Shown: piece after piece, positions 7,476 to 25,147 of the stretch
Layout of the letters: each line of letters opens with the position of its first letter
How positions within the stretch are numbered: position 1 is the first letter of the stretch
Virus record (IMG/VR): IMGVR_UViG_2869947659_000011
From: a virus
Taxonomy: Duplodnaviria > Heunggongvirae > Uroviricota > Caudoviricetes
Reading direction: 5' to 3' (one strand)
Length of the DNA stretch: 36,094 nucleotides
Notes under the pieces: model-generated
The model's input: the letters and a program-made list of their open reading frames with translations, nothing else
The model's database searches: none
What the model was told of the DNA's origin: nothing
Made by a program: the position numbers and the translations under genes

Positions 7476-8660
7476 ATGAGTGAAACTCGTTTTCATGGTG
7501 CCCGTGTTACGGAGAATACCGACCTGGTAACAGCGATTAACGATGTTGATTCCAGCGTTATCGGTATCGTGGCAACGGCGGATGATGCGGACGCGAAGCT
7601 GTTCCCGCTGAACAAGCCCACACTGCTGACCCGCGTCAATGACGTGCTGGGAAAATGCGGGACAACGGGGACGCTTTATCGTGCGCTTAAGGCCATCGCA
7701 GACCAGGTGAGCACAAAGGTGATCGTCGTTCGCGTGGCTGAACACAAAGAAGAAGACGGAAAGACGCAGGATCAACTGGTTATCGGTGGTTCTGAGGATG
7801 ACGGCAGCTATACGGGGATGTATGCGCTGCTTGTTGCAGAGCAGGATGAAAGCATCGGATACCGTCCGCGTATTCTGGCCGCGCCGGAGCTGGACACGGA
7901 GGCGGTAACAAAATCCCTGTGCGTGATTGCAGATAAACTGCGCGCGTTTGTGTATGCCTCATGTCATGGCTGTAACACGATGGCCGAGGCAATTACCTAC
8001 CGCCAGAAATTCAACGAACGTGAGGTGATGCTCTTATGGCCGGACTTCATCGCCTACAACCCGAAAAATGGCAAAAACGAAACGTTCCCCGCGCCTGCCT
8101 ATGCGTGCGGCCTTCGTGCGTACATTGACCATGAACAGGGATGGCACAAATCGCTGTCCAACGTTCCGGTTAAAAATGTGCTGGGGATGTCGAGGCATGT
8201 GTTCTGGTCGTTGCAGGCCGAAGACAGCGATGCCAACAGCCTCAACAACAAAGAAATCACGACCATTATTCGTCGCAACGGGTTCCGCTTCTGGGGTAAC
8301 CGCACACCGGAAACGAACGCCTACATCTTTGAGGTGTATACCCGAACCGCACAGGTGCTGGCTGATTCAATTGCGGAAGCGCAGTTTGAAACCATCGACA
8401 GTCCACTGACGCCTGCGAATGTGAAGGATGTTATCAGTGCCATCAGGGCAAAACTGGATTCACTGGTGACTGCCGGGAAACTGATTGGCGCGGAGTGCTG
8501 GTATGACGTGGTGGATAACAGCACCACGGATTTACGTCAGGGACGTGTGCGTATTCGCTACAAATATACGCCCGTTCCGCTACTGGAAGACATGGAGCTT
8601 TACCAGACGTTTACTGATGAATACTTTGAACCCGCATTTGCGGTGCTGGGAGGTGCCTGA
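7476..8660 (+). CDS. FI: Tail sheath protein (P2 gpFI-like)
   Basis: 394-aa ORF; the N-terminal region (..IGIVATADDADAKLFPLNKPTLLTRVND..) resembles P2 FI as remembered; size and position before the tail tube gene fit. Confidence 0.88.
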   Translation: MSETRFHGARVTENTDLVTAINDVDSSVIGIVATADDADAKLFPLNKPTLLTRVNDVLGKCGTTGTLYRALKAIADQVSTKVIVVRVAEHKEEDGKTQDQLVIGGSEDDGSYTGMYALLVAEQDESIGYRPRILAAPELDTEAVTKSLCVIADKLRAFVYASCHGCNTMAEAITYRQKFNEREVMLLWPDFIAYNPKNGKNETFPAPAYACGLRAYIDHEQGWHKSLSNVPVKNVLGMSRHVFWSLQAEDSDANSLNNKEITTIIRRNGFRFWGNRTPETNAYIFEVYTRTAQVLADSIAEAQFETIDSPLTPANVKDVISAIRAKLDSLVTAGKLIGAECWYDVVDNSTTDLRQGRVRIRYKYTPVPLLEDMELYQTFTDEYFEPAFAVLGGA

Positions 8661-9170
8661 TGGCTGTGCCAAAACATCTTCGCTTTTTTACGCTGTTTGT
8701 GGATGGTGAAAACGAAGTGGGTAATGTGACGTCCGTCACTCTGCCTAAGCTGACGCGCAAAACCGACAGCTACCGGGGTGGTGGCATGATGGGTGCGGTA
8801 AGTATTGATCTCGGTCTGGACGACTCCGCGCTTGATGCGAGCTTTGTCATGGGGGCGCAGTTCGTGAGCTGTTCCTTAAGTATGGCGGCACGATTGACGG
8901 CACGCTGCTGCGTTTTGCGGGTGAATACTACACCGATGCAGAAAGCGACCTGTATGAAGTCGAAATGCGCGGACGTGTGACGGAAATTGATATGGGGGAA
9001 GCCAAACAGGGCGAAGCCACATCACACACTTACGCCATTAAAACACCTACTACAAGCTGAGTGTTAACGATCGCCCGTTGTGGGAGATTGACCTGCTGAA
9101 CTTCATTTACCGGAAGGACGGCAAGGACATTGTGCCCGATCGCATCCGTTCCGCGCTTGGGCTTGGCTGA
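8660..9170 (+). pseudogene. FII: Tail tube protein (P2 gpFII-like), two frameshifts as sequenced
   Basis: P2 FII-like sequence is split over three frames: frame 1 to about 8855 (..LPKLTRKTDSYRGGGMMGAVSIDLGLDD..), frame 2 (..RFAGEYYTDAESDLYEVEMRGRVTEIDMGEAKQGE..), frame 3 (..TYYKLSVNDRPLWEIDLLNFIYRKDGKDIVPDRIRSALGLG*). The shifts sit at a G5 run (8851..8855) and an A4 run (9040..9043). Confidence 0.8.
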
Positions 9171-9225
9171 TAAGTAATATGCTGGCGGCGCAGTGCGTCG
9201 CCTCTGACTGAAAAGGAGACAACAG

Positions 9226-9600
9226 ATGAAAGACATCGATACTGAAACCCGGAATAACACCGTGGCGGATAATGTGACGGCAGTTGAGGATATGGCTGTC
9301 GAACGTGGCGTAAAACTGACCCGACCAATTGAGCGTGGTGGCGAAAAAATCACGTATGTGGAGATCACCGGGGCTATTGAGCAGGCTGGATCCCTGTGTG
9401 GTCTGTCGCTGTCTGATGTGCTGAATCTGAAAGCGGATACCATGTTCACGCTGTTGCCTCGCGTGACCTCGCCACGACTGGATGAAGTGATGATTAAAAA
9501 AATGTCGTCACGCGATTTTATTCAGTTGTGCGCTGTGGCTGTAAATTTTATGAGCGAGCCAGACTCTGGCGCGAAGAGCGTGCAGGAGACGGCAGCGTAA
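9226..9600 (+). CDS. E: Tail assembly chaperone (P2 gpE-like)
   Basis: 124-aa ORF between the tail tube and tape measure genes; the -1 frame ORF 9528..9764 overlaps its 3' end as expected for E/E'. Confidence 0.75.
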   Translation: MKDIDTETRNNTVADNVTAVEDMAVERGVKLTRPIERGGEKITYVEITGAIEQAGSLCGLSLSDVLNLKADTMFTLLPRVTSPRLDEVMIKKMSSRDFIQLCAVAVNFMSEPDSGAKSVQETAA

Positions 9601-9764
9601 TCACCCTGGTGTGCTTTGAGCACATCGAAGATCTGGTGGCGGATATTGCCGCCATTTTTAACTGGTCGCCCGCCGAAATCTTCATGATGACGCCCGGCGA
9701 AGTGGTTAGCTGGCGTGAGCGGGCGGCACTTCGTAGCGGGAATGCAGACAATGAAGACTCTTGA
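9528..9764 (+). CDS. E' extension, reached by programmed -1 frameshift from E (E+E' fusion)
   Basis: ORF in the -1 frame relative to E, opening just upstream of the slippery heptamer and ending inside the start of T. Confidence 0.55.
   Translation: MRCGCKFYERARLWREERAGDGSVITLVCFEHIEDLVADIAAIFNWSPAEIFMMTPGEVVSWRERAALRSGNADNEDS
9543..9549 (+). promoter_or_regulatory. Candidate -1 ribosomal slippery heptamer A_AAT_TTT for E to E'
   Basis: AAATTTT fits the X_XXY_YYZ pattern in the E frame (codons gta aat ttt) and lies 15 nt after the E' frame opens. Confidence 0.45.
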
Positions 9765-12558
9765 TATCCGGGTCGCTTTCAGCGCCGTTGACAGGCTGAC
9801 CCGGCCTGCCGAAAACGCCCGCCGCCTGATGGGGCAGTTTGGTGACTCCATCCAGCGAACGCAGGGGGCGATCAAAAATCTCGAGCGTCAGGCGCGATCA
9901 TTTGAGCGCGCCCGTGACGCTGTCAGTAAAGCGGATGCGGGCATCGTGAAAGCACGACGCCAGCTTAACGCCCTTAATCAGTTACAACGCACGGGTACAG
10001 TGCTCAGCGAAAAACAACAAAAGCTGATGCAGCAGTTAAGCACCCGGCTTGAACGCCTGAATGAATCGCGCACACGGGAAATTCAGAAAATGCGGGAGCT
10101 TGGCGGAGAGCTGAAACGCCACGGCATTTCCCTGACAGGCAGCGATAACACCATCCAGCAGGCCATCAGACGCACCGAACAGTACAACAACCAGCTTGAA
10201 CGCGAACGGCAGGCGCTTGCGCGTGTAACACGGGCGCGTGAGCGGTATTCGCGCGCGCAGGAAACAGCGGGAAAACTGAAAACAGGTGGTGCGCTGGCAA
10301 TTGGTGCGGCAGCGGCGGGCGGCTATGCTGCCGGGCGTTTTTTGCAGCCTGCGATCGGGTTCGGCAAAGAGATGTCCCGCGTTCAGGCACTGACGCGAAT
10401 CGACCAGAACAGCCTGCAGTTTAAGGCGCTGCGTGAGCAGGCGTTAAAACTTGGCTCTGAAACGCAGTTCACCGCAGGCGATGCCGCCAGTGGACAGGCA
10501 TTTCTTGCAATGGCTGGCTTTACACCACAGGCCATTCAGGCTGCGCTCCCTGGCGTACTGAGCATGGCAACGGCTGGCGGTATGGACCTCGGTGAGACGG
10601 CGGATATTGACTCAAATATTCTGACGCAGTTCGGTCTTTCTGCTGACCAGATGGACCGGGTCGGCGACACACTCACCGCAGCGTTTACCCGTACCAACAC
10701 TGACCTTCGCGCACTGGGTGAAACCATGAAATATGCAGGTCCGGTGGCGGGTAAGCTGGGAATATCTCTGGAGCAGGCCGCAGCGATGGCGGGCGTGCTG
10801 GCGAATATGGGTATCAGGGGGAGTGATGCTGGTACGGCAATGCGTGCCAGCCTGGCTCGTCTGGCATCACCGCCAAAGGCGGCAGCAGAGGCGCTGAAAG
10901 AGCTTGGCGTGTCTGTCTCGGATGCCGGGGGCAAAATGCGCCCGATGGAGGATGTGCTGGCTGACCTTTATAAAGCTACCCGCAAATACGGGGAAGTTGA
11001 CCGGGTATCGTTCTTTAAGGACATTGCCGGAGAAGAGGCTTTCACATCATTTATGGCCCTCGTTGATGCGGCAGGTGACGGCTCCTTACCCAAACTGAGA
11101 AAAGAACTTGAAGGCGCGCGCGGTGAGGCTGAACGCACGGCAAAGGTTATGGCCAACAACCTTGACGGCGATCTGAAATCACTCAGCAGTGCATGGGAAG
11201 GGTTGCGCATCCGCATTGCAGATCTGATTGACGGTCCGCTGCGTTCTGTCACGCAGTGGCTCACGCGTGTGGTATCAAAGGTGACGGCGCTGGCGCAGGC
11301 CCATCCCGCACTGACGCGCCAGCTACTGATTGCAGGCGGTGCATTGCTGGCAATGACTGCAACGGTTGGCTCGTTGTCGCTGGCTATTGGTGTGCTTGCT
11401 GGCCCGCTGGCAAAACTGCGTCTTGGTTTTTCCCTCCTGACCGGATCAATGAATGCTGTCAGGGTTCTGCCAGCACTATGGGGAATGGTGACGGGTTCCG
11501 TTTCTTTACTGGGAGGCGCTATCGGGGCGTTGTTCAGTCCGGTTGGTCTTATCGTGGCTGCGCTTGCCGGAGCTGCCGTTCTTATCTGGAAATACTGGGA
11601 TCCCATCAGGGCATTTTTTGCCGGGGTGTTCAGCGGGATTATGGAAAGGCTGACCCCGTTGCGCGAAACCTTTGAACGGTTTGGTCCTGTTTTTGACGCA
11701 ATCGCGAGTGGGATCAGCCAGGTGTTTAACTGGTTTAAATCGCTGCTGTCACCGATGGAGTCCAGCAAGGAAACTCTGGATAAATGTACCAGTGCTGGCG
11801 AGATATTCGGTAACGTTCTTGGCGGTGCGTTACAACTTGTTCTGACACCTGCAAAAATGTTGCTGGATACGCTGGCGTGGATACTTGAAAAGCTTGGTGT
11901 GCTTCCGGATGAAGCGGAAAGGGCGCGCAAGAAAATCGAAGACGCACAGCGTGCGGCCATTCTTCAGGACAAGGTTGCCTTGCTTCAGGGGGACCTGGCG
12001 AAAATCAATCCGCCGAAGCCTGTGGAAAATGGCAATGGCACCGGAGGTGATAACCCCAAAGACAATAAACCGCTCACAGACAGTAATACCGGTACGCTGC
12101 GCAGACTCAGCAAAATTGCTGATAACACAGGTAAGCTGGTTGAGGAGACGAAAAAACGCATTGGCCCCGGCGATATTGTCTTTAAAAACCTGCCCCGAGC
12201 ACTTGCTGTTCGTGGGGAGTGGCAGGAGCGGAAGATTGCGCAGGTCAGTAAGCCTGCCCCCGCAATTAATATCACACCCGTGGTTCCGGCTCCGCTGCCT
12301 CCGGCGCTGGTCCCTGTTGTTGCGGCCAGCTCCCGCCCGGTGGCGGAGGCTATACGATCTCCAGTGGCATCAGTTCCTGTAACTTCCCGTAACCGGGAGC
12401 CTGTTGCCTCCGGATTTGGTGGTGAAATTCATGTTCATCTGCATAACGTTGTTACGCAGAATCCCCGCGAACTGGCGAAACTGGTCGGTGAAATGGTCAG
12501 GGCAGAAATGGAACGGCGCGCCCGTGCCGGGCGTGGCTGTTTTTACGATAAAGATTGA
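9715..12558 (+). CDS. T: Tail tape measure protein (P2 gpT-like)
   Basis: 947-aa ORF; long coiled-coil N-terminal region and Gly/Ala-rich hydrophobic central block; position after E/E'. Confidence 0.88.
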   Translation: MSGRHFVAGMQTMKTLDIRVAFSAVDRLTRPAENARRLMGQFGDSIQRTQGAIKNLERQARSFERARDAVSKADAGIVKARRQLNALNQLQRTGTVLSEKQQKLMQQLSTRLERLNESRTREIQKMRELGGELKRHGISLTGSDNTIQQAIRRTEQYNNQLERERQALARVTRARERYSRAQETAGKLKTGGALAIGAAAAGGYAAGRFLQPAIGFGKEMSRVQALTRIDQNSLQFKALREQALKLGSETQFTAGDAASGQAFLAMAGFTPQAIQAALPGVLSMATAGGMDLGETADIDSNILTQFGLSADQMDRVGDTLTAAFTRTNTDLRALGETMKYAGPVAGKLGISLEQAAAMAGVLANMGIRGSDAGTAMRASLARLASPPKAAAEALKELGVSVSDAGGKMRPMEDVLADLYKATRKYGEVDRVSFFKDIAGEEAFTSFMALVDAAGDGSLPKLRKELEGARGEAERTAKVMANNLDGDLKSLSSAWEGLRIRIADLIDGPLRSVTQWLTRVVSKVTALAQAHPALTRQLLIAGGALLAMTATVGSLSLAIGVLAGPLAKLRLGFSLLTGSMNAVRVLPALWGMVTGSVSLLGGAIGALFSPVGLIVAALAGAAVLIWKYWDPIRAFFAGVFSGIMERLTPLRETFERFGPVFDAIASGISQVFNWFKSLLSPMESSKETLDKCTSAGEIFGNVLGGALQLVLTPAKMLLDTLAWILEKLGVLPDEAERARKKIEDAQRAAILQDKVALLQGDLAKINPPKPVENGNGTGGDNPKDNKPLTDSNTGTLRRLSKIADNTGKLVEETKKRIGPGDIVFKNLPRALAVRGEWQERKIAQVSKPAPAINITPVVPAPLPPALVPVVAASSRPVAEAIRSPVASVPVTSRNREPVASGFGGEIHVHLHNVVTQNPRELAKLVGEMVRAEMERRARAGRGCFYDKD

Positions 12559-12564
12559 GGAGTC

Positions 12565-13059
12565 ATGGCCATGATGATGATCTACGGCATGTTTGTTTTT
12601 GAGCTGCGCACGCTGCCGCATCAGCAGTTACAGCAAAACAAAAGCTGGCGGCATGTGAAAAATGAACGCGTTAACCGTTCAGCAAGCTGGCAGTATATCG
12701 GTGCAGGTGATGATCGCATCGTTCTTTCTGGTGTGCTTTATCCTGAAATTACAGGTGGCGAAGTGTCGCTGTCGCTGCTGACTACGCAGGCGTATACAGG
12801 ACGACCCTGGCCTTTGATTGATGGCGTCGGGCAGATTTACGGCATGTATGTCCTGACTGAAACGAATACGACCCGCTCCGAGTTTGATCGCTACGGTAAG
12901 GCGAAAAAGATAGAATTTTCACTGACTCTTGAACGCTGTGATGAGGATTTGCGGGAGCGCCTGCAATCCTCATCGTTCAGTGATATGCTGTCCGGCTTCA
13001 AAGATAAGGTGACATCATCTCTTAACAGCGCGGCCAGTTCAGTTAAAGGGCTGTTCTGA
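12565..13059 (+). CDS. U: Tail protein (P2 gpU-like)
   Basis: 164-aa ORF directly after T, same size class as P2 U and similar as remembered. Confidence 0.8.
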   Translation: MAMMMIYGMFVFELRTLPHQQLQQNKSWRHVKNERVNRSASWQYIGAGDDRIVLSGVLYPEITGGEVSLSLLTTQAYTGRPWPLIDGVGQIYGMYVLTETNTTRSEFDRYGKAKKIEFSLTLERCDEDLRERLQSSSFSDMLSGFKDKVTSSLNSAASSVKGLF

Positions 13060-13068
13060 TTTAACACA

Positions 13069-13098
13069 AAAACCGCTAATGGTCAGATTAGCGGTTTT
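13069..13098. terminator. Perfect 12-bp-stem hairpin between the convergent U and invertase genes (bidirectional terminator candidate)
   Basis: AAAACCGCTAAT-GGTCAG-ATTAGCGGTTTT; the right arm overlaps the last codons of the invertase gene. Confidence 0.5.
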
Positions 13099-13687
13099 CA
13101 TTTTCCTGAGTCTGCCCGGTTGTTTCTTCAGTCTGTATATCGCCTACAGGGTGATAACGATAAATCGTCGATGTGCCAATGCCGTAAATTATTGCCAGTT
13201 GTTTTCTGTCGTGCCCGTTTTTGATTAGCCTTGCTATTTGCTCATGCTGTTCTTTTGTCAGCTTCGGTCGACGTCCGCCTGTGCGCCCCCTTGCGCGCGC
13301 TGCCGCCAGCCCGGCCAGTGTACGTTCAACAATTAATTCACGTTCCATTTCAGCCAGGGCACCCATCACGTGGAAGAAAAAACGCCCCATTGGAGAAGAT
13401 GTGTCTATGCTGTCGGTCAGACTGCGAAAATTAATCCCTCGCTCCCGTAGTTCCCCGACGAGAGAAATCAGATGTTTCATGCTTCGCCCGAGGCGATCCA
13501 GTTTCCAGACAACCAGCGTGTCACCTTTTTGAAGGCGCTTTAAAGCGCGTTTTAATCCCGGTCGGTCTGTCTTTGTCCCGCTTAATTTATCTTCAAATAT
13601 TTGTTCACATCCTGCACAAACAAGAGCGTTTCGTTGCAGGTCTGTATTCTGGTCATTTGTTGATACCCTTACATAGCCAATCAGCAC
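13088..13687 (-). CDS. Serine DNA invertase, Gin/Cin/Pin/Hin family
   Basis: From the GTG at 13687 the product begins MLIGYVRVSTNDQNTDLQRNALVCAGCEQIFEDKLSGTKTDRPGLKRAL..., which closely matches the remembered N-termini of Mu Gin and e14 Pin (catalytic Ser in YVRVST, C-terminal HTH). The track start (TTG at 13705) is probably 6 codons too long. Confidence 0.9.
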   Translation of the reverse strand: MLIGYVRVSTNDQNTDLQRNALVCAGCEQIFEDKLSGTKTDRPGLKRALKRLQKGDTLVVWKLDRLGRSMKHLISLVGELRERGINFRSLTDSIDTSSPMGRFFFHVMGALAEMERELIVERTLAGLAAARARGRTGGRRPKLTKEQHEQIARLIKNGHDRKQLAIIYGIGTSTIYRYHPVGDIQTEETTGQTQENENR

Positions 13688-13741
13688 ACTGAATCTCCCG
13701 TCCAAAAGCGCAAATCATGCCATGCAGGCCAGAAACGGCCA

Positions 13742-13767
13742 TTATTTAAAACCTCGGTTTACAGGAA
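13742..13767. promoter_or_regulatory. Left inversion crossover site (gix/pix-like), between the invertase gene and the silent fibre cassette
   Basis: TTATTTAAAACCTCGGTTTACAGGAA differs at about 2 positions from Mu gixR as remembered and is the inverted partner of the site at 16417..16442 (shared 12-bp core ACCTCGGTTTAC / GTAAACCGAGGT). Confidence 0.7.
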
Positions 13768-14627
13768 ACGGTAAACAGGGCTGGTAACGCCGTGCAAAAA
13801 AATGGCGATACCTTGTCCGGTGGGCTTACTTTTGAAAATGACTCAATCCTTGCCTGGATTCGAAATACTGACTGGGCGAAGATTGGATTTAAAAATGATG
13901 CCGATGGTGACACTGATTCATACATGTGGTTTGAAACAGGCGACAACGGCAATGAATATTTCAAATGGAGAAGCCGCCAGAGCACCACAACAAAAGACCT
14001 GATGACGCTGAAATGGGATGCACTAAATATTCTTGTTAATGCTGTCATTAATGGCAGTCTTGGAGTTGGTTCGACGAATGCGTTAGGTGGTAGCTCTATT
14101 GTTCTTGGTGATAATGACACCGGATTTAAACAGAATGGAGACGGTATTCTGGATGTTTATGCTAATAGTCAGCGTGTATTCCGCTTTCAGAATGGAGTGG
14201 CTATTGCTTTTAAAAATATTCAGGCCGGGGATGGTAAAAAATTCACGCTATCCAGCTCCAACAACTCCACAAAGAATGCAACGTTTAATTTATGGGGTGC
14301 TTCAACCCGTCCAGTAGTTGCAGAGTTAGGCGATGAGGCAGGATGGCATTTCTATAGCCAGCGAAATACAGATAACTCGGTAATATTTTCTGTTAACGGT
14401 CAGATACAGCCCAGCAACTGGGGAATTTTGATTCACGCTATGTAAAAGATGTTCGCCTGGGTACGCGTGTTGTTCAATTGATGGCGCGTGGTGGTCGTTA
14501 TGAAAAAGCCGGACACGCAATTACCGGATTAAGAATCATTGGTGAAGTAGATGGCGATGATGAAGCCATCTTCAGACCAATACAAAAATACATCAATGGC
14601 ACATGGTATAACGTCGCACAGGTGTAA
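13768..14627 (+). pseudogene. Alternative tail-fibre C-terminal segment (Sv'-like), promoterless silent copy, frameshifted near 14424..14428
   Basis: The reading frame is open from the crossover site (..NLGLQETVNRAGNAVQKNGDTLSGGLTF..), in phase with H across the site. The conserved fibre C-terminus ..DSRYVKDVRLGTRVVQLMARGGRYEKAGHAITGLRIIGEVDGDDEAIFRPIQKYINGTWYNVAQV* is in the next frame after a missing base in GGAATTTT. Confidence 0.6.
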
Positions 14628-14630
14628 ATT

Positions 14631-15157
14631 ATGCAGCATTTAAAAAATATTAAGTCCGGAAATCCAAAAACAAAAGAACAATATCAGCTAACAAAGAATT
14701 TTGATGTTATCTGGTTATGGTCCGAAGACGGTAAAAACTGGTATGAGGAAGTAAATAACTTTCAGGACGACACCATAAAGATTGTATACGACGAAAATAA
14801 TATTATTGTTGCCATAACTAAAGATGCCTCAACGCTTAATCCGAAGGCTTTAGTGTCGTTGAGATTCCAGATATAACAGCCAATCGTCGTGCCGATGATT
14901 CAGGGAAGTGGATGTTTAAGGACGGAACTGTGGTTAAGCGGATTTATACAGCAGACGAACAGCAACAACAGGCCGAATCACAAAAGGTCGCGTTGCTTTC
15001 TGAAGCTGAAAGCGTTATTCAGCCACTGGAACGCGCTGTCAGGCTGAATATGGCGATGGATGAGGAACGCACACGACTGGAGTCATGGGAACGCTACAGC
15101 GTTCTGGTCAGCCGTGTGGATACAGCAAATCCCGAATGGCCACAAAAGCCTGAGTAA
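14631..15157 (+). pseudogene. Alternative tail fibre assembly chaperone (Tfa'), frameshifted near 14843..14848
   Basis: Track ORFs 14631..14876 and 14912..15157 together match the opposite-strand Tfa ([22 protein letters not shown].. then ..[28 protein letters not shown]). Reading continues in the +1 frame through ..[28 protein letters not shown]... Confidence 0.65.
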
Positions 15158-15162
15158 AAATT

Positions 15163-15182
15163 AAGGCCCAATATCGGGCCTT
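15163..15182. terminator. Hairpin between the convergent tfa' and tfa genes
   Basis: AAGGCCC-AATATC-GGGCCTT lies between the two stop codons (15155..15157 and 15186..15188). Confidence 0.5.
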
Positions 15183-15185
15183 CTC

Positions 15186-15719
15186 TCATTCTGGTTGTTC
15201 GGGAAACGTTACTGGCAGGCTGGAGGGGTCTGTAGATTCGACTTTCTGCGCATAGAGCATCCACTCGGTTAATTTTTGTTTATTCTCGTCGGAAATGATG
15301 CCCAGCCGTAGCTGTGAGTCCCATAGCTGGGTTTTATCCCTGACAAGTTGCAACAGGCTTTGCTTTTCATTTTCCGCTTGTTGCCTCTGCTCTTCCTCGG
15401 TATAAGTTCGCTTTATCACTACGCCATCTTTGAACAACCATTTCCCCGAAATATCAGCCCGGCGATTTGCTGTAATATCAGGTAATTCAACGACGCTTGC
15501 GCCTTCCGGATTAATTGCTGAAACATCCTTTTCAATACAAATAATAACGCCGTTATGGTAATAGACCATTTTCAAAGTGTCTGGCTGGAAATTCTTTTGT
15601 TCCTCATACCAGTTTTTTCCATCATCTGAATAAAGCCATTTGATGTTAAATTGCTTTGTTAGCTGGTATTGCTCTTTTGTTTTAGGGTTGCCAGCAGTAA
15701 TGTTTTTTAAGTGCATCAT
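15186..15719 (-). CDS. Tail fibre assembly chaperone (Tfa/gpG-like), expressed orientation
   Basis: 177-aa ORF directly after H; about 70% similar over its length to the tfa' copy; Tfa-like sequence as in Mu U and e14 TfaE. Confidence 0.8.
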   Translation of the reverse strand: MMHLKNITAGNPKTKEQYQLTKQFNIKWLYSDDGKNWYEEQKNFQPDTLKMVYYHNGVIICIEKDVSAINPEGASVVELPDITANRRADISGKWLFKDGVVIKRTYTEEEQRQQAENEKQSLLQLVRDKTQLWDSQLRLGIISDENKQKLTEWMLYAQKVESTDPSSLPVTFPEQPE

Positions 15720-15792
15720 CGTTAAATACTCCCCGCGTTATACCACGTCCCATTAATGCAATACTGAATTGGCCTTGCCTGTGTTGTATCAA

Positions 15793-17706
15793 TTAATTCA
15801 TCACGGTTTCCGTTAACTGAACCCGTAACGACATAACCTGACCTGTCAGACCAGCCGGACCATTCCATGTCTGAACAGATGACAGACCGCCAAGGCGAAT
15901 ACCTGTAATAAACCTTGAGTTACATTCTGCCCGCGTATATGCACCAACATCTCCCGCTGAAGGTTTTCGTGTCGTGGTATAGAAATCTGACCAACCTAAT
16001 TCAACCCCATAACCATCACGAGCCGACCTGTAGGAAATGCCACCATTTTTATAATTCACACGGAATTGTACGGCAGGACAGCTACCAGCATTTATATTAA
16101 AGTGAAGAATTAATGCAGATGCACCACCAATCAGGGCGTTATATGCACCACTATCCCAATTCCATCCAACGGATGTATCACCATTAACAGTATTACCTGT
16201 TTGTCGGAGTGCAAATGCATTGACATTTTTGGCACTAATTGAAATATCGCTAGAACCATCAAAACCAACTCCAGCAATTTTTCGTGCTGTTTTCAGCTTT
16301 GTTGCAGTAGCGGCATTGCCGGACAGTTCCCCAGAAAGGCCACCGCTGAATGTTTGTCGATTGGTCCAGGTATTCGCTGTACTGAGTAACGGTATTTTCT
16401 CCCCGCTTGTGCCGAGTTCTCGTAAACCGAGGTATTCGATAACGGCAGCAACGGTCGATTTCGCAAGAATATCCCGCCCGACTTTTGTCAGGGTTGCCAG
16501 GCTGGCGACATCATTCCCCGTAAAATACGGAAACCTGTCTGCCGCAGTAGCAAGCCCGGCCAGCGCCGTCAGGGTGGCATCTTTCGGTTGCTTACCCGCA
16601 AGCGCGTTAGTCATGGTGGTCGCAAAATTCGGGGCGTTTCCCAGCGCCGCCGCTAACTCGTTCAGCGTATTCAGTGCGTCAGGTGACGAATCTACAAGGG
16701 CGGCAATCGCAGCCATAACGAAAGCCGTGCTTGCGATTTGGGTATTATTCGTTCCCTGTCGCGCAGTTGGCGTTGTTGGCGTTCCGGTCAGCGCAGGACT
16801 GTTTAAGGGCGCTTTCTTGTTCGTTTCATCCATTACCGCCTTAACCGCTTTCGATGTCGCGGCCAGTGTTTCAGACGTGCTGTTGGTGGCACTACTGAGC
16901 TGGACTATCCCTTTTTGTGCCGTCGTGGCGTCCTGAGCGGTATATTTTGCGTTAGCAAGGTCATACGCGGCCTTTACTGCTTTCGGCGTTGCAGCCTGCG
17001 TTTCAGACGTGCTGTTGGTGGCGCTACTGAGCTGGACAAGGCCTTTTCGCGTCGTGCTGGCATCCTGCGCAGTATATTTACCGTTAGCAAGATCATACGC
17101 GGCCTTTACTGCTTTCGGCGTTGCAGCCTGCGTTTCAGACACGCTGTTAGTGGCGCTACTGAGTTGAACAAAGCCTTTTGCGGTCAGCGAGGCGTCCGGG
17201 TGACGTCGTGACTGTTCATGCTCTTTCAGTTTGTCATCCACGTAATCCACTGTGGCCATCACCATGGTGTTGTCCACGGTAAGCGCCACGGTGGCAGTGC
17301 TGGATACGGTCAGAATGGTGCGAAATGTTTGTGCACGACCGGACCCTTCGGCAACGGCTGGCTTGTAACTTTCGGCAGTATTTCCCACCGCGATTAAATC
17401 GCCGTGCTCATCAAATACACCAATTTCCCGGATCCAGAATCCGCCCGTTTCAGGAGGAATAACCAGCTCCGCAATAATGCGGTTCTGATGTGTTGCGTCC
17501 AGGATGACGCGATTAACAGTATGTCGCCACACCTCATGCACCAGACGGGTCTGCTTACTGTCTGGTGTGGGCAACGTGCCGCCACCGTCGCCCACGGCCA
17601 TATGAGTCAGGCGGACAGGCTTACCATCTGGCGCGGCTACCTGAGCTAATTTTTTTGCACCCGTATCGGTGATAATGGTTTTAAATTTTCGTGTTGTGGT
17701 ACTCAT
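15793..17706 (-). CDS. H: Tail fibre protein (P2 gpH-like): constant N-terminal part joined to the currently expressed variable C-terminal segment
   Basis: 637-aa ORF; three tandem 38-aa repeats of the phage tail-fibre repeat type (..KGLVQLSSATNSTSETQAATPKAVKAAYDLANAKYTAQDA..); the crossover site is embedded in frame at codon ~424. Confidence 0.88.
   Translation of the reverse strand: MSTTTRKFKTIITDTGAKKLAQVAAPDGKPVRLTHMAVGDGGGTLPTPDSKQTRLVHEVWRHTVNRVILDATHQNRIIAELVIPPETGGFWIREIGVFDEHGDLIAVGNTAESYKPAVAEGSGRAQTFRTILTVSSTATVALTVDNTMVMATVDYVDDKLKEHEQSRRHPDASLTAKGFVQLSSATNSVSETQAATPKAVKAAYDLANGKYTAQDASTTRKGLVQLSSATNSTSETQAATPKAVKAAYDLANAKYTAQDATTAQKGIVQLSSATNSTSETLAATSKAVKAVMDETNKKAPLNSPALTGTPTTPTARQGTNNTQIASTAFVMAAIAALVDSSPDALNTLNELAAALGNAPNFATTMTNALAGKQPKDATLTALAGLATAADRFPYFTGNDVASLATLTKVGRDILAKSTVAAVIEYLGLRELGTSGEKIPLLSTANTWTNRQTFSGGLSGELSGNAATATKLKTARKIAGVGFDGSSDISISAKNVNAFALRQTGNTVNGDTSVGWNWDSGAYNALIGGASALILHFNINAGSCPAVQFRVNYKNGGISYRSARDGYGVELGWSDFYTTTRKPSAGDVGAYTRAECNSRFITGIRLGGLSSVQTWNGPAGLTGQVMSLRVQLTETVMN
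16417..16442. promoter_or_regulatory. Right inversion crossover site (gix/pix-like) inside the tail fibre gene
   Basis: TTCTCGTAAACCGAGGTATTCGATAA is the inverted partner of 13742..13767 and encodes ..EYLGLRE.. in H; the Sv' frame reads ..NLGLQE.. across its partner, so inversion keeps the frame. Confidence 0.65.
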
Positions 17707-17708
17707 GC

Positions 17709-18239
17709 TTAATCGCCTGGATAAATGGTAATAACTTCACCGTCATAAGTTGCCGCCGCTGCGAAAATATCCCCCGGAATTTCCTGAATGATATTCAGCC
17801 CTGTCATGTGGCGGCTGACCGGGCGGGCATCAGCAATCAACCGCTCCATTTCCAGATACATTTCCTCCGTCACGCCACTGTCCAGCGTGCCGACTTCAAC
17901 GGTAAATGTTCCCGGTTCTCCGCCGAACTCCCACCACTCAGACACGCGAATGAGGTATCCCAGCGGCTCAATGGCCCAGCGCAGTGCGCTGATGGTCCCT
18001 TTGTGTCGGTGTATCAGCCATGCATCACGAATAACCTGTCGCTTTGTCTCTTCCGGCCAGTTGCGATCCCAGCGGTCAACGGAAAACGCCCAGGCGAGAT
18101 AAGGCAGCAGATGCACCGGGCAGGTGTCCGGCGACCACAGCGTGTTGAGGTCTACCGGAATGTCTGTAATGCGTGTTCCGACGGCTTCGGCACAACGCAT
18201 GAAATTGCTGGCTGATGGTGGTAACAACGAATTACTCAT
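17709..18239 (-). CDS. I: Baseplate assembly protein (P2 gpI-like)
   Basis: Track ORF 17709..18272; start taken at the ATG at 18239 (MSNSLLPP..), giving 176 aa as in P2 I; position between J and H. Confidence 0.78.
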   Translation of the reverse strand: MSNSLLPPSASNFMRCAEAVGTRITDIPVDLNTLWSPDTCPVHLLPYLAWAFSVDRWDRNWPEETKRQVIRDAWLIHRHKGTISALRWAIEPLGYLIRVSEWWEFGGEPGTFTVEVGTLDSGVTEEMYLEMERLIADARPVSRHMTGLNIIQEIPGDIFAAAATYDGEVITIYPGD

Positions 18240-19128
18240 TGCGTCCACCTTCGCTGATGGTGAATGACTCACAGCGCGCCGCCTGTATGTCGCTGATGGC
18301 CATATTCTGTGTGGGTTCGATTATCTCCACGCGTTGCACACCGTGCACATGCAGTGCGGCAGCAATGGCGGACAACGCCACGTCCTGACCGATAAGCCCC
18401 TGCTCAGCCAGCCACTTCCTGAACGACGATTCAGCCGCGGCCAGAATAGGTTCGGATTCCGGGCCGGGGTAAAAGTACAGTTTTGCATTCAGCCGCCATG
18501 TCACGATTCTGGCACTCTGTACGGTCAGGCGGTCGGCCACCGGGCGGGTATCCTCTGCATTCAGAACGGCGCGAACGGTATTAAGCAACGCCTCCGTTGC
18601 TGTGCCGTCGCCCTCAGTGGACAGGATGGAAACCGTCACGTTGGCCGGAGACGGGCTGATGGCCCGCGCATCGCGTACCAGACCGCTGGCGCTGCGTGCA
18701 AAATACTCGTATGCACCTGACGGGCCAGCAACACTCAGACCGTCATATGCCCGTTGCGCCCGTAGTCTCAGCGAGGTGTCACTTTCCATCACTGCATCGG
18801 TGGTATCCGTTGCCGGAGTGATAACCAGGCGCTTTGTGTTCATATTGCCCGCGAGGTTGTCCAGGTCTGTCCCGGCGCTGTGGCTTAGCATGCAGGCGCG
18901 TGCACCCTCATTGACCCGCTGGCGTAACAGCATTTCACGAAACGACATGGTTTGAGCGATAACGTTAAGGGGTTCCGATTCCAGCTCCAGCGCGGCGGAA
19001 ACGGCTTCACGCTGTTCGGCGGGATAGGACGCAATCATCATGGCCTTTGTGTCAGCCAGAATTGCCTCAAAGTCAGGCTCCGCGATGATGGCGGGTTCCG
19101 GTAACTGTGAAAGGTCAACGGCAGGCAT
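18232..19128 (-). CDS. J: Baseplate assembly protein (P2 gpJ-like)
   Basis: 298-aa ORF; size and position in the V-W-J-I-H block. Confidence 0.82.
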   Translation of the reverse strand: MPAVDLSQLPEPAIIAEPDFEAILADTKAMMIASYPAEQREAVSAALELESEPLNVIAQTMSFREMLLRQRVNEGARACMLSHSAGTDLDNLAGNMNTKRLVITPATDTTDAVMESDTSLRLRAQRAYDGLSVAGPSGAYEYFARSASGLVRDARAISPSPANVTVSILSTEGDGTATEALLNTVRAVLNAEDTRPVADRLTVQSARIVTWRLNAKLYFYPGPESEPILAAAESSFRKWLAEQGLIGQDVALSAIAAALHVHGVQRVEIIEPTQNMAISDIQAARCESFTISEGGRNE

Positions 19129-19131
19129 GAT

Positions 19132-19482
19132 TTACTCCCTCAGCGTGATGGTTAATTCAACATTCTGCATGGTCTGCATGACAGTGCCCGACAGCGTCAC
19201 CCCGGCGCGGCCTCCTGCCTTCCAGACAACGTCGATAGCGTCCAGGGCAATGCGGGGTTCCCATCGTGTCAGCGCAATCACGGCAGCACTCATGCATTGC
19301 AGACGCGTGGTGTTATTCATGGGTTCGTCAATCAAATCAGGCACAAGGCTGCCATATTCCCGTCGCATAACCCGGCTTGCCAGCGGGGTGGTCAGGATGT
19401 CCCTGACTGACTGTTTCAGGTGCTCCATATCGTTCAGGTTTCCCGTTCCGTCCGGGTTCATTCCTGTGTAGCGGGTTGTCAC
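19132..19482 (-). CDS. W: Baseplate wedge protein (P2 gpW-like)
   Basis: 116-aa ORF; size and position match P2 W. Confidence 0.82.
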   Translation of the reverse strand: MTTRYTGMNPDGTGNLNDMEHLKQSVRDILTTPLASRVMRREYGSLVPDLIDEPMNNTTRLQCMSAAVIALTRWEPRIALDAIDVVWKAGGRAGVTLSGTVMQTMQNVELTITLRE

Positions 19483-20060
19483 TGCGGGCCTCCTGTCGAA
19501 TCGCTGCCACCTTTAACGCCACCGTGTTTATGCGTATGCACTGTGATGCCGTTTGAGGTGAAATTGCCGCCGCTGTGCGTGATATTGCCGCTCATCTTTC
19601 CCCCTTTTGTGACGTCAAGCGTCGCCGTTCTCAGAAGGTCTGTGCATTCCACGACGGGTGTATCCAGTGTCACGCTGACGGATGCCTGCAGGGTGGCTGT
19701 TTTCATGCCGCTGGCGCTCAGTGCGCCTGCGTCCGCGTCGTAGCGGAACACCGCGCCATCCGGCGCGCTGACCACGATTTCTTTCAGGCTTTTGCCGGGG
19801 GCCGGAATGGCATCACTCCACAGGCTGCCAATTATCATGGCGGTTTCCGGGTTGCCGCCAATGCAGGCAATTACCACCTGTTCGCCTGGTGATGGCGGCA
19901 GCCACACATTGAAGGCTCCCGCGCGAGAGGTGTTCCAGCGCAGCCAACCTGTTTCCAGTTCGCCGCTGCGAACGCGCACGCGCCAGGACTTCTCATCAAC
20001 TTCAGAGATGATCCCGGTGCGGATGATATTGCTCAGTAGCCGCATGAGTTCTGCGCTCAC
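19479..20060 (-). CDS. V: Baseplate spike protein (P2 gpV-like)
   Basis: 193-aa ORF; OB-fold-like N-terminus and Gly-rich C-terminal tip (..HTHKHGGVKGGSDSTGGPQ); position before W. Confidence 0.82.
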   Translation of the reverse strand: MSAELMRLLSNIIRTGIISEVDEKSWRVRVRSGELETGWLRWNTSRAGAFNVWLPPSPGEQVVIACIGGNPETAMIIGSLWSDAIPAPGKSLKEIVVSAPDGAVFRYDADAGALSASGMKTATLQASVSVTLDTPVVECTDLLRTATLDVTKGGKMSGNITHSGGNFTSNGITVHTHKHGGVKGGSDSTGGPQ

Positions 20061-20701
20061 CGTACAGCCTCCGCAATCCGGCCCAGCACCGTGTTATAAA
20101 TCAGGCGCTCATCTGCCTGGCTGATACCCAGCAGCTCACGTACCGGGTAATCGGTGAAAATGCCCGGCGCAACCTGATCGCGCTCACCGAACTGATGAAC
20201 GCGTGCAATACGTGCGGCCACGCCGCTGTAACCCACCGTCACACCGGAAGCATCTGCACGGGCTTTCAGGTAGCGGGCGGTGCGCAGTTTTACGAACATG
20301 GGGACGCGCTTTGTGCTGTCCTGGTTGATGCGCCGGGTGCGTATTTCCAGAAAGCGGTCGATGTCATCCCGGTAAAACGTGCGGATGCTGTTTTTATCCT
20401 CATCCCACCCGGTGATGGTTCGCCCGTATTTCCCCGTGTCGTGATGCCAGTTTTTCAGCGTGCGTGCTTCGTTATTCCAGATAAAGCGAATGCGCTCCTG
20501 TATCCGGGTTACGTGGCGTCTGCGTGGTGTCCATGCGGTCCCGTCCGGCGCTTTCTGTGACCGGATACGTGCCTGCTGGGCGCGGCGTAAATCCTGTGCC
20601 AGCTTTCTGGCGATGTTATTGATGGCCTGCTGATTCAGGCTGTCGCGGATGGCCTCAAAGGTTTCATCCACGCGAGTGAATGCCTTATCCATCGCTTTCA
20701 C
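20057..20701 (-). CDS. S: Tail completion / virion morphogenesis protein (P2 gpS-like)
   Basis: 214-aa ORF between R and V; longer than P2 S (150 aa), assigned mainly by position. Confidence 0.65.
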   Translation of the reverse strand: MKAMDKAFTRVDETFEAIRDSLNQQAINNIARKLAQDLRRAQQARIRSQKAPDGTAWTPRRRHVTRIQERIRFIWNNEARTLKNWHHDTGKYGRTITGWDEDKNSIRTFYRDDIDRFLEIRTRRINQDSTKRVPMFVKLRTARYLKARADASGVTVGYSGVAARIARVHQFGERDQVAPGIFTDYPVRELLGISQADERLIYNTVLGRIAEAVR

Positions 20702-21152
20702 CCCACGTCACATCCTGGAATACATGCGACCAGTCGCCTTCGGAAGATGGCAGGCGGGGTTTTGGCTCCAGCAGGTGTTCTGCCTGCGGTGTGCCCTGAC
20801 TGCTGCGCGTGATGCGAACGCGTTCCCGCAGGGGGAGCGTAAACAGGAGATCGGCGCTGTCATCGTCATTGATAACGGCGGAAAATTTGATGTCCTGATT
20901 ACGCTCAGGGTTGAGCAACAACTGTGGCTGATTTTCGGATAACCACGCCAGCAGCGGCAGCGTGAGGTCGTCCAGCTCCCCGGCGTAATCCATGACAAAC
21001 ATCACCATCTGATAGCGGTAAACAAACGATGGGGTTTCTCCGGTCGTTTCAATGTTGCCGCTCTCCACGAAAATGGTGAATTTTTCCGGGTTAGCCTGAC
21101 ACCATCGGCATGAACGGGTCATGGCTTCACGCAGGGAATCAGTTTTCAGCAT
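20685..21152 (-). CDS. R: Tail completion protein (P2 gpR-like)
   Basis: 155-aa ORF, the same length as P2 R, directly after the lysis cassette. Confidence 0.7.
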   Translation of the reverse strand: MLKTDSLREAMTRSCRWCQANPEKFTIFVESGNIETTGETPSFVYRYQMVMFVMDYAGELDDLTLPLLAWLSENQPQLLLNPERNQDIKFSAVINDDDSADLLFTLPLRERVRITRSSQGTPQAEHLLEPKPRLPSSEGDWSHVFQDVTWGESDG

Positions 21153-21429
21153 GGTTGTTATCCTCGTTGTTCAGTCGTTGCAGCCTGCGCTGTTCCAGTA
21201 ATTCAATGGCCCGTTTATCCGCGTTACAGGTTTCCAGTGCATCCAGAAGGCGGTCGCCCCATATACCGAGATTTCCCCATGTGGGAGTGTCAGGGAAGGG
21301 GGGAGGCGTTACCGGTATGGTCAGCGTCTGCGGTATAAGCCGGACTGACGGCGCTGGCAGTGGCGCGTTCTGCGTGCCTGCGCAGCCTGTCAGTAAAACG
21401 AGCGTCAGGCAAAGCGTGGGCGCATTCAT
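21139..21429 (-). CDS. lysC: o-spanin (LysC/Rz1-like outer-membrane lipoprotein), overlapping the i-spanin gene
   Basis: From the internal ATG at 21429: MNAPTLCLTLVLLTGCAG.. (signal peptide with LTGC lipobox) followed by a Pro-rich region; overlaps the 3' half of lysB in another frame and extends beyond it, as in P2 lysB/lysC. Confidence 0.65.
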   Translation of the reverse strand: MNAPTLCLTLVLLTGCAGTQNAPLPAPSVRLIPQTLTIPVTPPPFPDTPTWGNLGIWGDRLLDALETCNADKRAIELLEQRRLQRLNNEDNNHAEN

Positions 21430-21697
21430 CTTTTGCAATATCGTTGCGTAGCTGTTCACGTCTTACCTCTCCGTCCTGATTGCGTTGCTGATTTTCCACG
21501 CGGAGTTGCGCCAGCACCTGCTGCATATCCTGTACCCCGGCGCTGATGATATTCAGGGTGTCGGCGGTACTTTTCAGGGTGCTGGCCTGCGCTTCGTTTC
21601 TGGCGTTCTCCCGGCCCAGCGACCACGACAGACGCATGGATGTTCCCCATCCGGCAGTCAGAAGGAAAGCGACGCCAAGCGTGGGCCAGAGCTTCAT
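21290..21697 (-). CDS. lysB: i-spanin (LysB/Rz-like)
   Basis: From the ATG at 21697: MKLWPTLGVAFLLTAGWG.. (N-terminal transmembrane helix) then a coiled-coil-like region; start overlaps the endolysin stop. Confidence 0.65.
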   Translation of the reverse strand: MKLWPTLGVAFLLTAGWGTSMRLSWSLGRENARNEAQASTLKSTADTLNIISAGVQDMQQVLAQLRVENQQRNQDGEVRREQLRNDIAKDECAHALPDARFTDRLRRHAERATASAVSPAYTADADHTGNASPLP

Positions 21698-22086
21698 GCC
21701 GGATAGGCTCCGTGTGGTAACTGAAAATGCGGTCCGTCTTTCAGGGTCTTCCAGTCGCCGCCCCATTCCACCGGAATATTCAGTTCCCGGCTGGCCTGTC
21801 TGAATGCTGCTGCGATTTTTTCGTACAGCGGCCATTCCCATGACATCTGGCTGCCGATATAAGCCACAACATCCACGGCATGCCCCGTAAGGTGGCGGCT
21901 GTTCATGGTCTGGCTCTTACCCGTGGCCACCAGTTGCTTCTGGCGGTAACGGCTGCGCAACCCTTCGGTGATACCAAAATCCACTTCCGAGATTTCCAGT
22001 GCCCGTCGGGTCACTTTCACCAGATCAGGATTTACACCCTGCAAATTCTTTTCGCTCCGGCTGCTGAATTTAAATGTGTTGCTCAT
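21694..22086 (-). CDS. Endolysin, peptidase M15 (L-alanyl-D-glutamate peptidase / VanY-like) type
   Basis: 130-aa ORF with SRHLTGHAVDV.. and a later His, the H-x6-D...H zinc site arrangement I associate with M15 peptidases such as the T5 endolysin; sits where P2 has lysozyme K. Confidence 0.7.
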   Translation of the reverse strand: MSNTFKFSSRSEKNLQGVNPDLVKVTRRALEISEVDFGITEGLRSRYRQKQLVATGKSQTMNSRHLTGHAVDVVAYIGSQMSWEWPLYEKIAAAFRQASRELNIPVEWGGDWKTLKDGPHFQLPHGAYPA

Positions 22087-22406
22087 TCGTCCTTCTCCTT
22101 CACCCTGCGATTAAAGGCCGCAATAACCTTGTCGCGTGCTTTCTCTGCACCCATAAAACCGATTGATGCGCCGATAAACGTCACGGCATCTTCAGGAAAC
22201 CCGAAGAAGCGCAACGACCCGGCCACGGCCATGGCAAGAACGCCGCACGCCAGCGATCCCGTTACGGTCTGAACCAGTGTTCGTCCGTCATAAAGGCTCA
22301 TCAGCGCGGAAATGCTGACCGCCGCGCCTACTGCATACACCGTTGGCAGGTGGTCAAAGAGCCACGCAATAACCTGCTCTGTGATCCCTGTTTGAATGGT
22401 GCTCAC
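22083..22406 (-). CDS. Holin (P2 gpY position)
   Basis: Track ORF 22083..22625 is over-extended. Start taken at the GTG at 22406, which has a GGGGGGAG Shine-Dalgarno 5 nt upstream. The product has two or three hydrophobic helices (..AVSISALMSLY.., ..GSLACGVLAMAVAGSL.., ..TFIGASIGFMG..) and a basic C-terminus. Confidence 0.6.
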   Translation of the reverse strand: MSTIQTGITEQVIAWLFDHLPTVYAVGAAVSISALMSLYDGRTLVQTVTGSLACGVLAMAVAGSLRFFGFPEDAVTFIGASIGFMGAEKARDKVIAAFNRRVKEKDE

Positions 22407-22408
22407 TG

Positions 22409-22609
22409 CTACTCCCCCCACAACTGAATCATTTCTCGTTTCTTCTTCTCCGGCTCCGGCATCTCCACTTCCTGCCCGGCGTCCAGAAATACCTGCTGAC
22501 AGAGTCCGGGGTTGGCATCCAGCACCTTTTCGGTGACGCCCTGCGTCGTGCCGTAGTACCGGAAACAGAGCGAATCCACGGTGTCGCCTTCCAGTGCCTT
22601 CACTTTCAT
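22409..22609 (-). CDS. X: Tail protein X (P2 gpX-like, LysM-like)
   Basis: From the ATG at 22609: MKVKALEGDTVDSLCFRYYGTTQGVTEKVLDANPGL.. resembles P2 X (..GDTLDAICVRYYGRTEGVVETVLAANPGL..); 66 aa. Confidence 0.75.
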   Translation of the reverse strand: MKVKALEGDTVDSLCFRYYGTTQGVTEKVLDANPGLCQQVFLDAGQEVEMPEPEKKKREMIQLWGE

Positions 22610-23103: not shown

Positions 23104-23199
23104 GGGGTTCACTCCTGAAAAAAAATCGGGCGGTGGGTGCGCGGTGTAAACGGTCACGGAGTCAAACCGGAACACCGCGCACGCCGCCCGCTGACGGGG

Positions 23200-25124: not shown

Positions 25125-25147
25125 AAAAAATTTGCTCCTTTGTCTAA

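Follow-up and report, generated by a model that had tools for sequence, protein, structure and literature searches.

A decayed copy of a known inversion switch: a likely PinB-type tail-fibre cassette in a P88-like prophage of the Shigella lineage

The window analysed here, a stretch of 36,094 nucleotides that forms part of the Shigella-lineage chromosome CP026766.1 (a literature search for a paper on CP026766 found none), very probably contains a DNA inversion switch of the Gin family (Din subfamily), of the Shigella PinB/B-segment type and carried by a P88-like Xuanwuvirus prophage. The segment inverts in nature at exactly the two crossover sites described below. The system is an already known one, and what the window holds is a decayed copy of it that is probably still flipping. 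Its parts, by position in the window, are:

13088–13687, minus strand: serine DNA invertase of the PinB/Gin type, 199 aa, GTG start, intact
13598–13669: putative recombinational enhancer (sis, Fis-bound) in the 5′ end of the invertase gene, by homology to cin
13742–13767: crossover site 1, TTATTTAAAACC TC GGTTTACAGGAA, with two mismatches to Mu gix
13754–16430: invertible segment, from core dinucleotide to core dinucleotide, 2677 bp
13756–14627, plus strand: silent alternative fibre C-terminus, Mu S / G(+) type, its own start absent, frameshifted at 14419
14631–15157, plus strand: silent chaperone, Mu U type, frameshifted at 14840 to give 81 + 81 aa
15163–15182, minus strand: hairpin between the convergent chaperone genes, an 8-bp stem followed by AATTTTT
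15186–15719, minus strand: chaperone of the joined set, Mu U′ type, 177 aa, intact (Pfam Caudo_TAP, phrog_136)
15722–16428, minus strand: currently joined fibre C-terminus, Mu S′ / G(-) type, frameshifted at 15856
16417–16442: crossover site 2, TTCTCGTAAACC GA GGTATTCGATAA, in frame in H at codons about 422–430
16431–17706, minus strand: N-terminal constant region of the tail-fibre gene H (P2 H type, about 425 aa), with 99.4% identity to H of P88

The initial annotation of this DNA had proposed a pair of 26-bp sites at 13742–13767 and 16417–16442, and both lie exactly there, forming a 30-nt inverted repeat with 80% complementarity. Scanning the whole 36 kb window with a Din-site pattern returned only these two sites, against an expectation of 0 from 100 shuffles. 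Their core dinucleotides, TC and GA, are reverse complements of one another, as needed for inversion, and the pair has the makeup of a Din system: two inverted, imperfectly symmetric 26-bp sites with the same central dinucleotide. The proposal was to stand or fall with an alignment to gix-family sites, and here it stands: both sites carry the gix core dinucleotide, align with gix, cix, pix and bix, and are gix-type. Among the sites in a published table (PMC3241671), those nearest to both are bixL and bixR of PinB. Site 1 differs by one mismatch from the bixR of that table; the outer half of site 2, GGTATTCGATAA, is that of the tabulated bixL, and the whole of site 2 becomes bixL after inversion; one inner half-site in the bix comparison is TTCTCG here versus TTCCTG in the bix system, two bases apart.

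The serine invertase gene reported as adjoining site 1 is an intact ORF (13088–13687), 54 bp from it. Its product, with the N-terminus MLIGYVRVSTNDQNTDLQRNAL, has the layout of a small serine recombinase, with a catalytic N-terminal domain containing Ser9 and a C-terminal helix-turn-helix (Pfam Resolvase, 1.4e-50, and HTH_7, 4e-13). Alignment to Gin, Cin and Pin, suggested earlier as a check, places it among the Gin-family serine recombinases: it matches the PDB Gin structures 4m6f and 3uj3 at E = 3e-100, the 4m6f alignment spanning invertase residues 1–183 with the active-site S9 present in YVRVSTNDQ, and protein identity is 94% to the P88 invertase, 81% to Gin, 77% to PinE and 72% to Cin. 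The catalytic domain is almost identical to that of wild-type Gin, from which residues 1–134 differ only by K39R, V120I and L124M. Residue 114 is the wild-type Met; the 4m6f chain has V at this position, presumably the Fis-independent mutant allele of Gin. At least 1000 contigs encode exactly this protein, and the DNA is identical to the UTI89 allele. As to the enhancer, positions 13598–13669 correspond to cin nt 19–90, annotated as enhancer in the P1 record, and Mu gin is 100% identical to this stretch in alignment; both enhancer function and Fis dependence are predicted here from this homology.

At the other end of the cassette, the constant part of H contains the Pfam domain Phage_tail_fib and Phage_fiber_2 repeats. 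The claim that the H frame is kept across the site in both orientations holds, the product reading ..EYLGL|RE.. now and ..EYLGL|QETVNRAGNAV.. after in-silico inversion. The layout is that of a fibre switch, with two opposed fibre ends, each with its own chaperone, in frame with the constant N-terminus in both orientations. The silent fibre end has a Pfam Gp34_trimer domain and is about 91% identical to Mu S over 13742–14055. The silent chaperone, 175 aa long in relatives, matches Pfam Caudo_TAP in its second half only; the chaperone of the joined set has the length seen in relatives and is the sole intact ORF among the four of the cassette. A hairpin said to be shared by the two converging sets is indeed present between the chaperone genes, but its T-run is on the minus strand only, and it is terminator-like for that strand. 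A promoter scan gave fewer matches than in shuffles and is uninformative on promoters inside the segment. GC content in the segment is 41–47%, below that of the rest of the prophage.

In the mechanism we propose, the invertase would bind both 26-bp sites, with Fis occupying the enhancer within the 5′ end of the invertase gene, and strand exchange at the central GA/TC dinucleotide would flip the 2.68-kb segment. Each flip would join the constant 425-codon part of H to one of the two alternative C-terminal exons, and would also put the matching chaperone downstream of the joined fibre end.

Judged by its genes, the element that carries the cassette is a P88-like Xuanwuvirus (Peduoviridae), and its description as a P2-like prophage is borne out: P2-type structural genes match those of relatives (P88, 503458) gene by gene, the invertase and a double fibre set follow H, and FI-U is on the opposite strand. 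This FI-U tail block (7476–13059) is inverted with respect to P2, an orientation common to the other genus members examined. No further Din-type sites were found in the window, the borders of the block at 7476 and 13059 included, and the block is therefore not a second invertible segment. P2 itself has no invertase at this point, as had been stated, and has fun(Z) after gene G. The location had also been described as a known variable slot of P2; since all of FI-U lies on the opposite strand in this genus, the arrangement is more than the P2 order with an insertion. A 1039-aa ORF had no match in Pfam, NCBIfam, PHROGs, PADLOC or PDB. This is a defunct prophage: an IS2 interrupts ogr, gene A is missing, and D and the genes for tube and capsid are broken, leaving it with no functional ogr, A, D, FII or N. 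Its defunct state, the inverted FI-U block and the three small deletions discussed below were all overlooked in the initial annotation.

A search for assemblies with the segment in the opposite orientation, recommended with the original reading, was strongly positive. Among complete E. coli genomes, 79 have the orientation of the window and 62 the opposite one; of ten Shigella-lineage genomes with the same dead prophage (recognised by the truncated tube gene and, where visible, sharing the same IS2 in ogr and a truncated D), six match the window in orientation and four have the reverse. As in a Din system, the segment occurs both ways round, with the exchange at the core. One might still picture a static mosaic of fibre genes, assembled by recombination and not by site-specific inversion, as fibre genes are notoriously mosaic and the low GC content of the segment would fit; this explanation retains next to no probability. 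The sites match the experimentally defined gix and tabulated bix sites, and a Gin-like invertase is the neighbouring gene. What refutes the mosaic is that the half-sites of flipped genomes are exactly as expected from exchange of the 2-bp core (the recombinant half-sites in the four flipped Shigella-lineage copies are precisely those predicted), and that UTI89 and NU14, with 1974 mismatches as deposited, have 0 after in-silico inversion between the cores, their sole difference in 9.7 kb being a precise inversion from one core dinucleotide to the other. For the copy in the window, the intact invertase, enhancer region and both sites make it most likely that the segment still flips. The prophage is otherwise inactive, and it could be argued that the segment is a frozen fossil in this strain, with sites and invertase that look intact, inversion that has ceased and orientation differences among relatives that are old; we consider this improbable. 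The invertase DNA is the allele of UTI89, which is separated from NU14 in those 9.7 kb by the clean inversion alone. Orientation varies among Shigella-lineage copies with the same lethal lesions, and even among three copies with one common IS1 inside the segment. A short-read contig from ERR200311, 100% identical to window positions 3251–13762, ends exactly at the branch point, 13762 being the last base shared by both orientations, although such a break could also reflect a second copy of the region or low coverage. Contigs in the short-read assemblies of sister strains end at the segment or short of it.

Compared with every close relative examined, the cassette has three single-base deletions. 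That at 14419 (G5 to G4) stops the silent fibre end after 217 of its 278 aa, that at 14840 (C3 to C2) splits the silent chaperone, and that at 15856 (G3 to G2) results in a joined H of 637 aa, versus 661 in relatives, which diverges at residue 618 and has lost the last 45 native residues. The picture of an expressed fibre and chaperone accordingly fails for this copy, which has frameshifts in three of its four cassette ORFs and belongs to a dead prophage; usable fibres from both alternatives in a virion-making phage are a property of UTI89, NU14 and P88. There is a lesser but appreciable chance that the real cassette is intact, with two usable fibre ends, and that the deletions are assembly errors, perhaps from polishing of a mixed-orientation culture. 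All three are in homopolymer runs inside the 2.7-kb segment, those at 14840 and 15856 occur in one PacBio assembly only and in no other assembly on record, and two sister copies (L037 and L040) have a 661-aa H and a 278-aa silent end; other CP0267xx assemblies have many private, scattered frameshifts, so that the 14840 and 15856 deletions could be consensus errors. Against this, independent short-read contigs are 100% identical to the assembly over 10.5 kb and 1.05 kb, including the homopolymer differences at 8850, 9039 and 14419 (the last also in an independent Logan contig) and the SNP 14332G, specific to the window. The assembly is therefore correct wherever a check is possible, and one or more of the three deletions are real. 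The lineage also has real homopolymer frameshifts, such as a +A at 14639 in Sb227 and the frameshift of the tube gene, which 1068 collection blocks share, Sb227 among them; dismissal of all the window frameshifts as sequencing noise is rejected for the tube gene and for 14419. Even with a repaired cassette, the prophage would be without ogr, gene A, D, tube and capsid.

These losses, together with the frameshifts in both fibre ends and one chaperone, leave the switch in this copy without a phage phenotype any longer. The invertase is intact in all ten Shigella-lineage copies, in which other prophage genes are variably destroyed. One possibility is that it has outlived the phage through some use to the host: an invertase intact in ten decayed copies, and apparently still flipping, could act in trans on other chromosomal Din-type sites, but we hold this to be quite improbable. 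As a discovery the locus has little weight, since public phage records already annotate invertible fibre segments for prophages of the P88 type. Its value is in annotation: it should be labelled an invertible segment, lest assemblies that differ in orientation be taken for misassemblies, and the split fibre and chaperone ORFs should be labelled pseudogenes. It would also be a clean example from nature of an invertase still at work on its segment long after its prophage died.

Switches of the Gin, Cin, Pin and PinB kind have stood in textbooks since the 1980s and 1990s. The locus had initially been equated with the host-range switch of the Mu G, P1 C and e14 P segments; the kind of system was rightly named, but a host-range role does not apply to this copy, and PinB seems nearer. 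Tominaga's pinB study of 1991 is said to describe an interior resembling G/gin, next to a constant region that is different and larger. On the evidence of the sites, the nearest described system appears to be the Shigella B segment with pinB (GenBank D00660; Tominaga, Ikemizu, Enomoto 1991, J Bacteriol 173:4079; bix sites in PMC3241671), not Mu, P1 or e14: it has a GA core, as here, a likeness drawn through the published site table. In P88, a member of the same genus whose invertase is 94% identical, the sites are exactly the bixL and bixR of that table, and the segment is about 3.07 kb versus 2.68 kb here.

The Mu G segment has the same order as the cassette (constant fibre, site, S-type end and U, U′ and S′-type end, site, invertase), and in both the invertase reads away from the segment. 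Mu DNA is about 90% identical to the interior over 13742–14055 and 14592–16219, with no DNA match for 14056–14591 and 16220–16416. The constant part in Mu is Sc, whereas here it is P2 H-like and about 425 aa, and Mu is a transposable phage, whereas the host element here is P2-like. The C-terminal helix-turn-helix domain of Mu Gin is only about half identical to that of the invertase in the window, which also has a different tail; on the improbable reading above of an action in trans, this divergence in DNA binding, combined with a catalytic domain of Gin type, might give the enzyme its own site preference. P1 C/Cin and e14 P/PinE have invertases of the same family (72% and 77% identical) and the same 26-bp site architecture, and the P1 C-segment interior is about 88% identical to this one in DNA; the tabulated cix and pix cores are AA, versus GA here, and segment sizes and constant regions are unlike those of the window. 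The classic precedent for an invertase that stays active in a defective prophage is e14.

Xuanwuvirus members such as P88, Escherichia phages 503458 and 520873, and Citrobacter phage phiSM share the gene order of the prophage: as here, they have the invertase and the double fibre/chaperone set, and their FI-U block lies on the opposite strand. Unlike P88, which can be induced and is viable (PMC6456863), the copy in the window is full of IS elements and frameshifts.

The two 26-bp crossover sites lie exactly where the initial annotation placed them, the first next to a serine invertase gene that is likewise where it was claimed to be:

13088-13687, minus strand: serine invertase ORF, GTG start behind a GGAG motif, 199 aa, N-terminus MLIGYVRVSTNDQNTDLQRNAL
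13742-13767: site 1, on the invertase side, TTATTTAAAACC TC GGTTTACAGGAA
16417-16442: site 2, in frame in the tail-fibre gene, TTCTCGTAAACC GA GGTATTCGATAA

A repeat finder returned the sites as a 30-nt inverted repeat, and a loose Din-family pattern matched them and nothing else in 36 kb, with no match in any of 100 shuffles. Their core dinucleotides are mutual reverse complements, which puts the two sites in inverted orientation to each other. The invertase has Resolvase catalytic and HTH_7 domains and belongs to the Gin family, matching both Gin crystal structures (E = 3e-100); its overall identity is 94% to the P88 enzyme, 81% to Gin, 77% to PinE and 72% to Cin. Residues 1-134 differ from wild-type Gin only by K39R, V120I and L124M, and the C-terminal DNA-binding domain is far more diverged, with an acidic tail of its own. 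The gene (13088-13687) reads as a mosaic: nearly Gin over 1-134, about half identical in the HTH region from around residue 135, and ending in a 16-residue acidic tail; the P88 invertase shares the HTH domain and has a different tail. The region of near-identity to Mu gin takes in the gene's first 200 nt and the spacer up to site 1, and with them, by homology, the counterpart of the enhancer annotated in P1 cin. Parts list, family and exact crossover points are established.

The element adjoins pheT-ihfA and is a P2-like prophage, with GPO, the P2 capsid protein, gpL, X, R, S, V, W, J, I and H, followed by FI, FII, E, T, U, D and ogr; the nearest named phages are P88, 503458 and 520873, all of the genus Xuanwuvirus. 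The copy in the window is dead, with the following lesions:

402-1732: IS2-like element splitting ogr, with a 5-bp duplication
ca. 2000-2768: IS1 between ogr and a 1039-aa gene
7196-7198: stop at codon 41 of D
8850 and 9039: two single-base deletions, frameshifting FII (tube)
24948: deletion, frameshifting N (capsid)
25968: extra T near the start of O, frameshift
ca. 31003-32518: IS3-family element in place of replication gene A
35232-36094: second IS3-family element, running past the right window end

Across the assembly collection, 1068 blocks have the truncated tube product, Shigella boydii Sb227 (CP000036.1) among them; this decay is therefore real and old. The 1039-aa ORF (2841-5960, minus strand, between D and ogr) is intact, and whole in nine of ten decayed Shigella-lineage copies; it has 31-34% GC in a prophage of 53-59%, its N-terminal part is hydrophobic, and some RefSeq records name it “MFS transporter”. 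Searches of Pfam, NCBIfam, PHROGs, PADLOC and PDB returned nothing for it; we regard it as a candidate for cargo or defence. Among the short-read assemblies examined that encode an identical tape-measure protein, several (L022-L024) depart from the window at the point matching 13081, which falls within the terminator hairpin separating U from the invertase, and run on into the end of an IS3-family element (TGAACCGCCCCGGGAATCC...), indicating an insertion there in those strains that the window lacks.

Inversion occurs in nature at the exact crossover points, and assemblies in the opposite orientation, proposed as the check on the cassette, were readily found. A search of every complete E. coli genome found 79 that contain 80% or more of the length of the region as it stands; when the query segment was inverted in silico from core to core, the count was 62. 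The sister strains UTI89 and NU14, compared over 9704 bp, show 1974 differences in their deposited orientations, and none after in-silico inversion. Ten Shigella-lineage genomes carry the prophage with the truncated tube gene; as far as their contigs reveal, they also share with the window the IS2 in ogr and the truncation of D. The invertase is full-length (199 aa) in every one of them. The window orientation is found in six; the other four, Sb227 among them, are flipped, with recombinant half-sites exactly as predicted for exchange at the core. Three of these copies have one IS1 within the segment in common, and are not uniform in orientation. Since orientation varies among copies sharing prophage lesions and this IS1, flipping must have gone on after the prophage died. 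A short-read contig from ERR200311 is identical to 3251-13762 and ends at 13762, the last base common to both orientations, as expected of a culture containing both; this is suggestive, not proof.

As initially described, the reading frame of H is kept across site 2 in both orientations, now as ..AAVIEYLGL/RELG.. and, after in-silico inversion, as ..EYLGL/QETVNRAGNAVQKNGDTLSGG... The silent plus-strand set resembles Mu S/U and the joined minus-strand set Mu U'/S', at about 90% DNA identity, with two interior stretches lacking a DNA match to Mu. The convergent sets were said to share a hairpin: it is present, but looks terminator-like on the minus strand only. Working fibre ends and chaperones, implied by the same account, are not what the cassette holds: relative to the closest E. 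coli relatives and sister Shigella copies, single bases are lost at three homopolymers, breaking both fibre ends and the silent chaperone.

14419: G5 to G4; silent fibre end truncated to 217 of 278 residues
14840: C3 to C2; silent chaperone split into two 81-aa pieces
15163-15182: hairpin between the convergent chaperone genes
15186-15719: chaperone of the joined set, 177 aa, the only whole ORF of the cassette's four
15856: G3 to G2; joined H of 637 aa instead of 661, diverging at residue 618 and losing the last 45 native residues

The 217-aa fragment also occurs in AP024518.1, adjoining a 193-aa Gin, com and mom in a Mu-like prophage; the frameshifted allele is therefore not limited to P88-like prophages. 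At the A-run where the U-type chaperone starts (14639), the window has the E. coli length, and sister Shigella copies (L034, L037, L039 and L040, including Sb227) have an extra A, so that gene callers predict a protein of 187 aa or 75 aa rather than 175 aa. Within the constant part of H lie three tandem 132-bp repeats (16838-17197), 75-83% identical, which correspond to the Phage_fiber_2 repeats.

Another possibility is that the three deletions are assembly errors. CP026766.1 (GCA_002949475.1, 4.68 Mb), the Shigella-lineage chromosome from which the window comes, is the sole record of the frameshifted H product and of the deletions at 14840 and 15856; all three deletions fall within the invertible segment, and sister assemblies of the same accession series have scattered private frameshifts. 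Against this, stretches of 10.5 kb and 1.05 kb of the assembly are 100% identical in independent short-read contigs; the shorter stretch includes the 14419 deletion and a SNP at 14332 that is specific to the window. The independently sequenced Sb227 also has frameshifts at homopolymers, both in this cassette and in its tube gene. The 14419 deletion is rated as real, and those at 14840 and 15856 as probably real; in either case, the prophage cannot produce virions.

By analogy with the Gin/Hin paradigm, invertase dimers would bind the two sites and meet at a Fis-bound enhancer within the 5' end of the invertase gene, the 2-bp core being cleaved through Ser9, rotated and religated. In an intact relative, each flip would fuse one or other receptor-binding end to the constant part of H (425 codons), with the cognate chaperone placed behind that end, and a lysogen population would release phage with two host ranges. 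In the window copy, a flip merely swaps one broken fibre end for another.

The cassette had been assigned to a variable P2 slot lacking an invertase in P2. In P2, gene G is indeed followed by fun(Z) and an invertase is absent, but the genus has not simply gained one: in P2 the tail block, H and D/ogr are all on one strand, whereas in the window, as in P88 and phage 503458, the FI-U block is opposite H and D/ogr, which looks like a shared genus trait. FI-FII-E-E'-T-U (7476-13059) is on the plus strand, with 6209-7318 and 15722-25985 on the minus strand; D and FI diverge from a 157-bp spacer. The Din-family pattern found no sites at the FI-U block borders in the window.

The system is already known: the value of this copy lies in correct annotation and as a tidy example of an invertase outliving its phage, and is otherwise small. 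When aligned to known sites, site 1 departs from Mu gix at two positions; among the published Din sites tabulated in PMC3241671, PinB's bixL and bixR come closest. Site 2 has the outer half of bixL and becomes bixL exactly after inversion, site 1 differs from bixR by one base, and P88 has both exactly. Judging by these sites, the switch of the P88 phage genus is probably the B-segment/pinB system that was described from Shigella in 1991, with a close allele of it in the window. The proposed system type is borne out by invertase, sites and natural inversion, which work as elsewhere in the Gin/Cin/Pin/PinB group, where the system belongs; the sole departure from that group is that this particular copy lacks a usable fibre, its ends being frameshifted.
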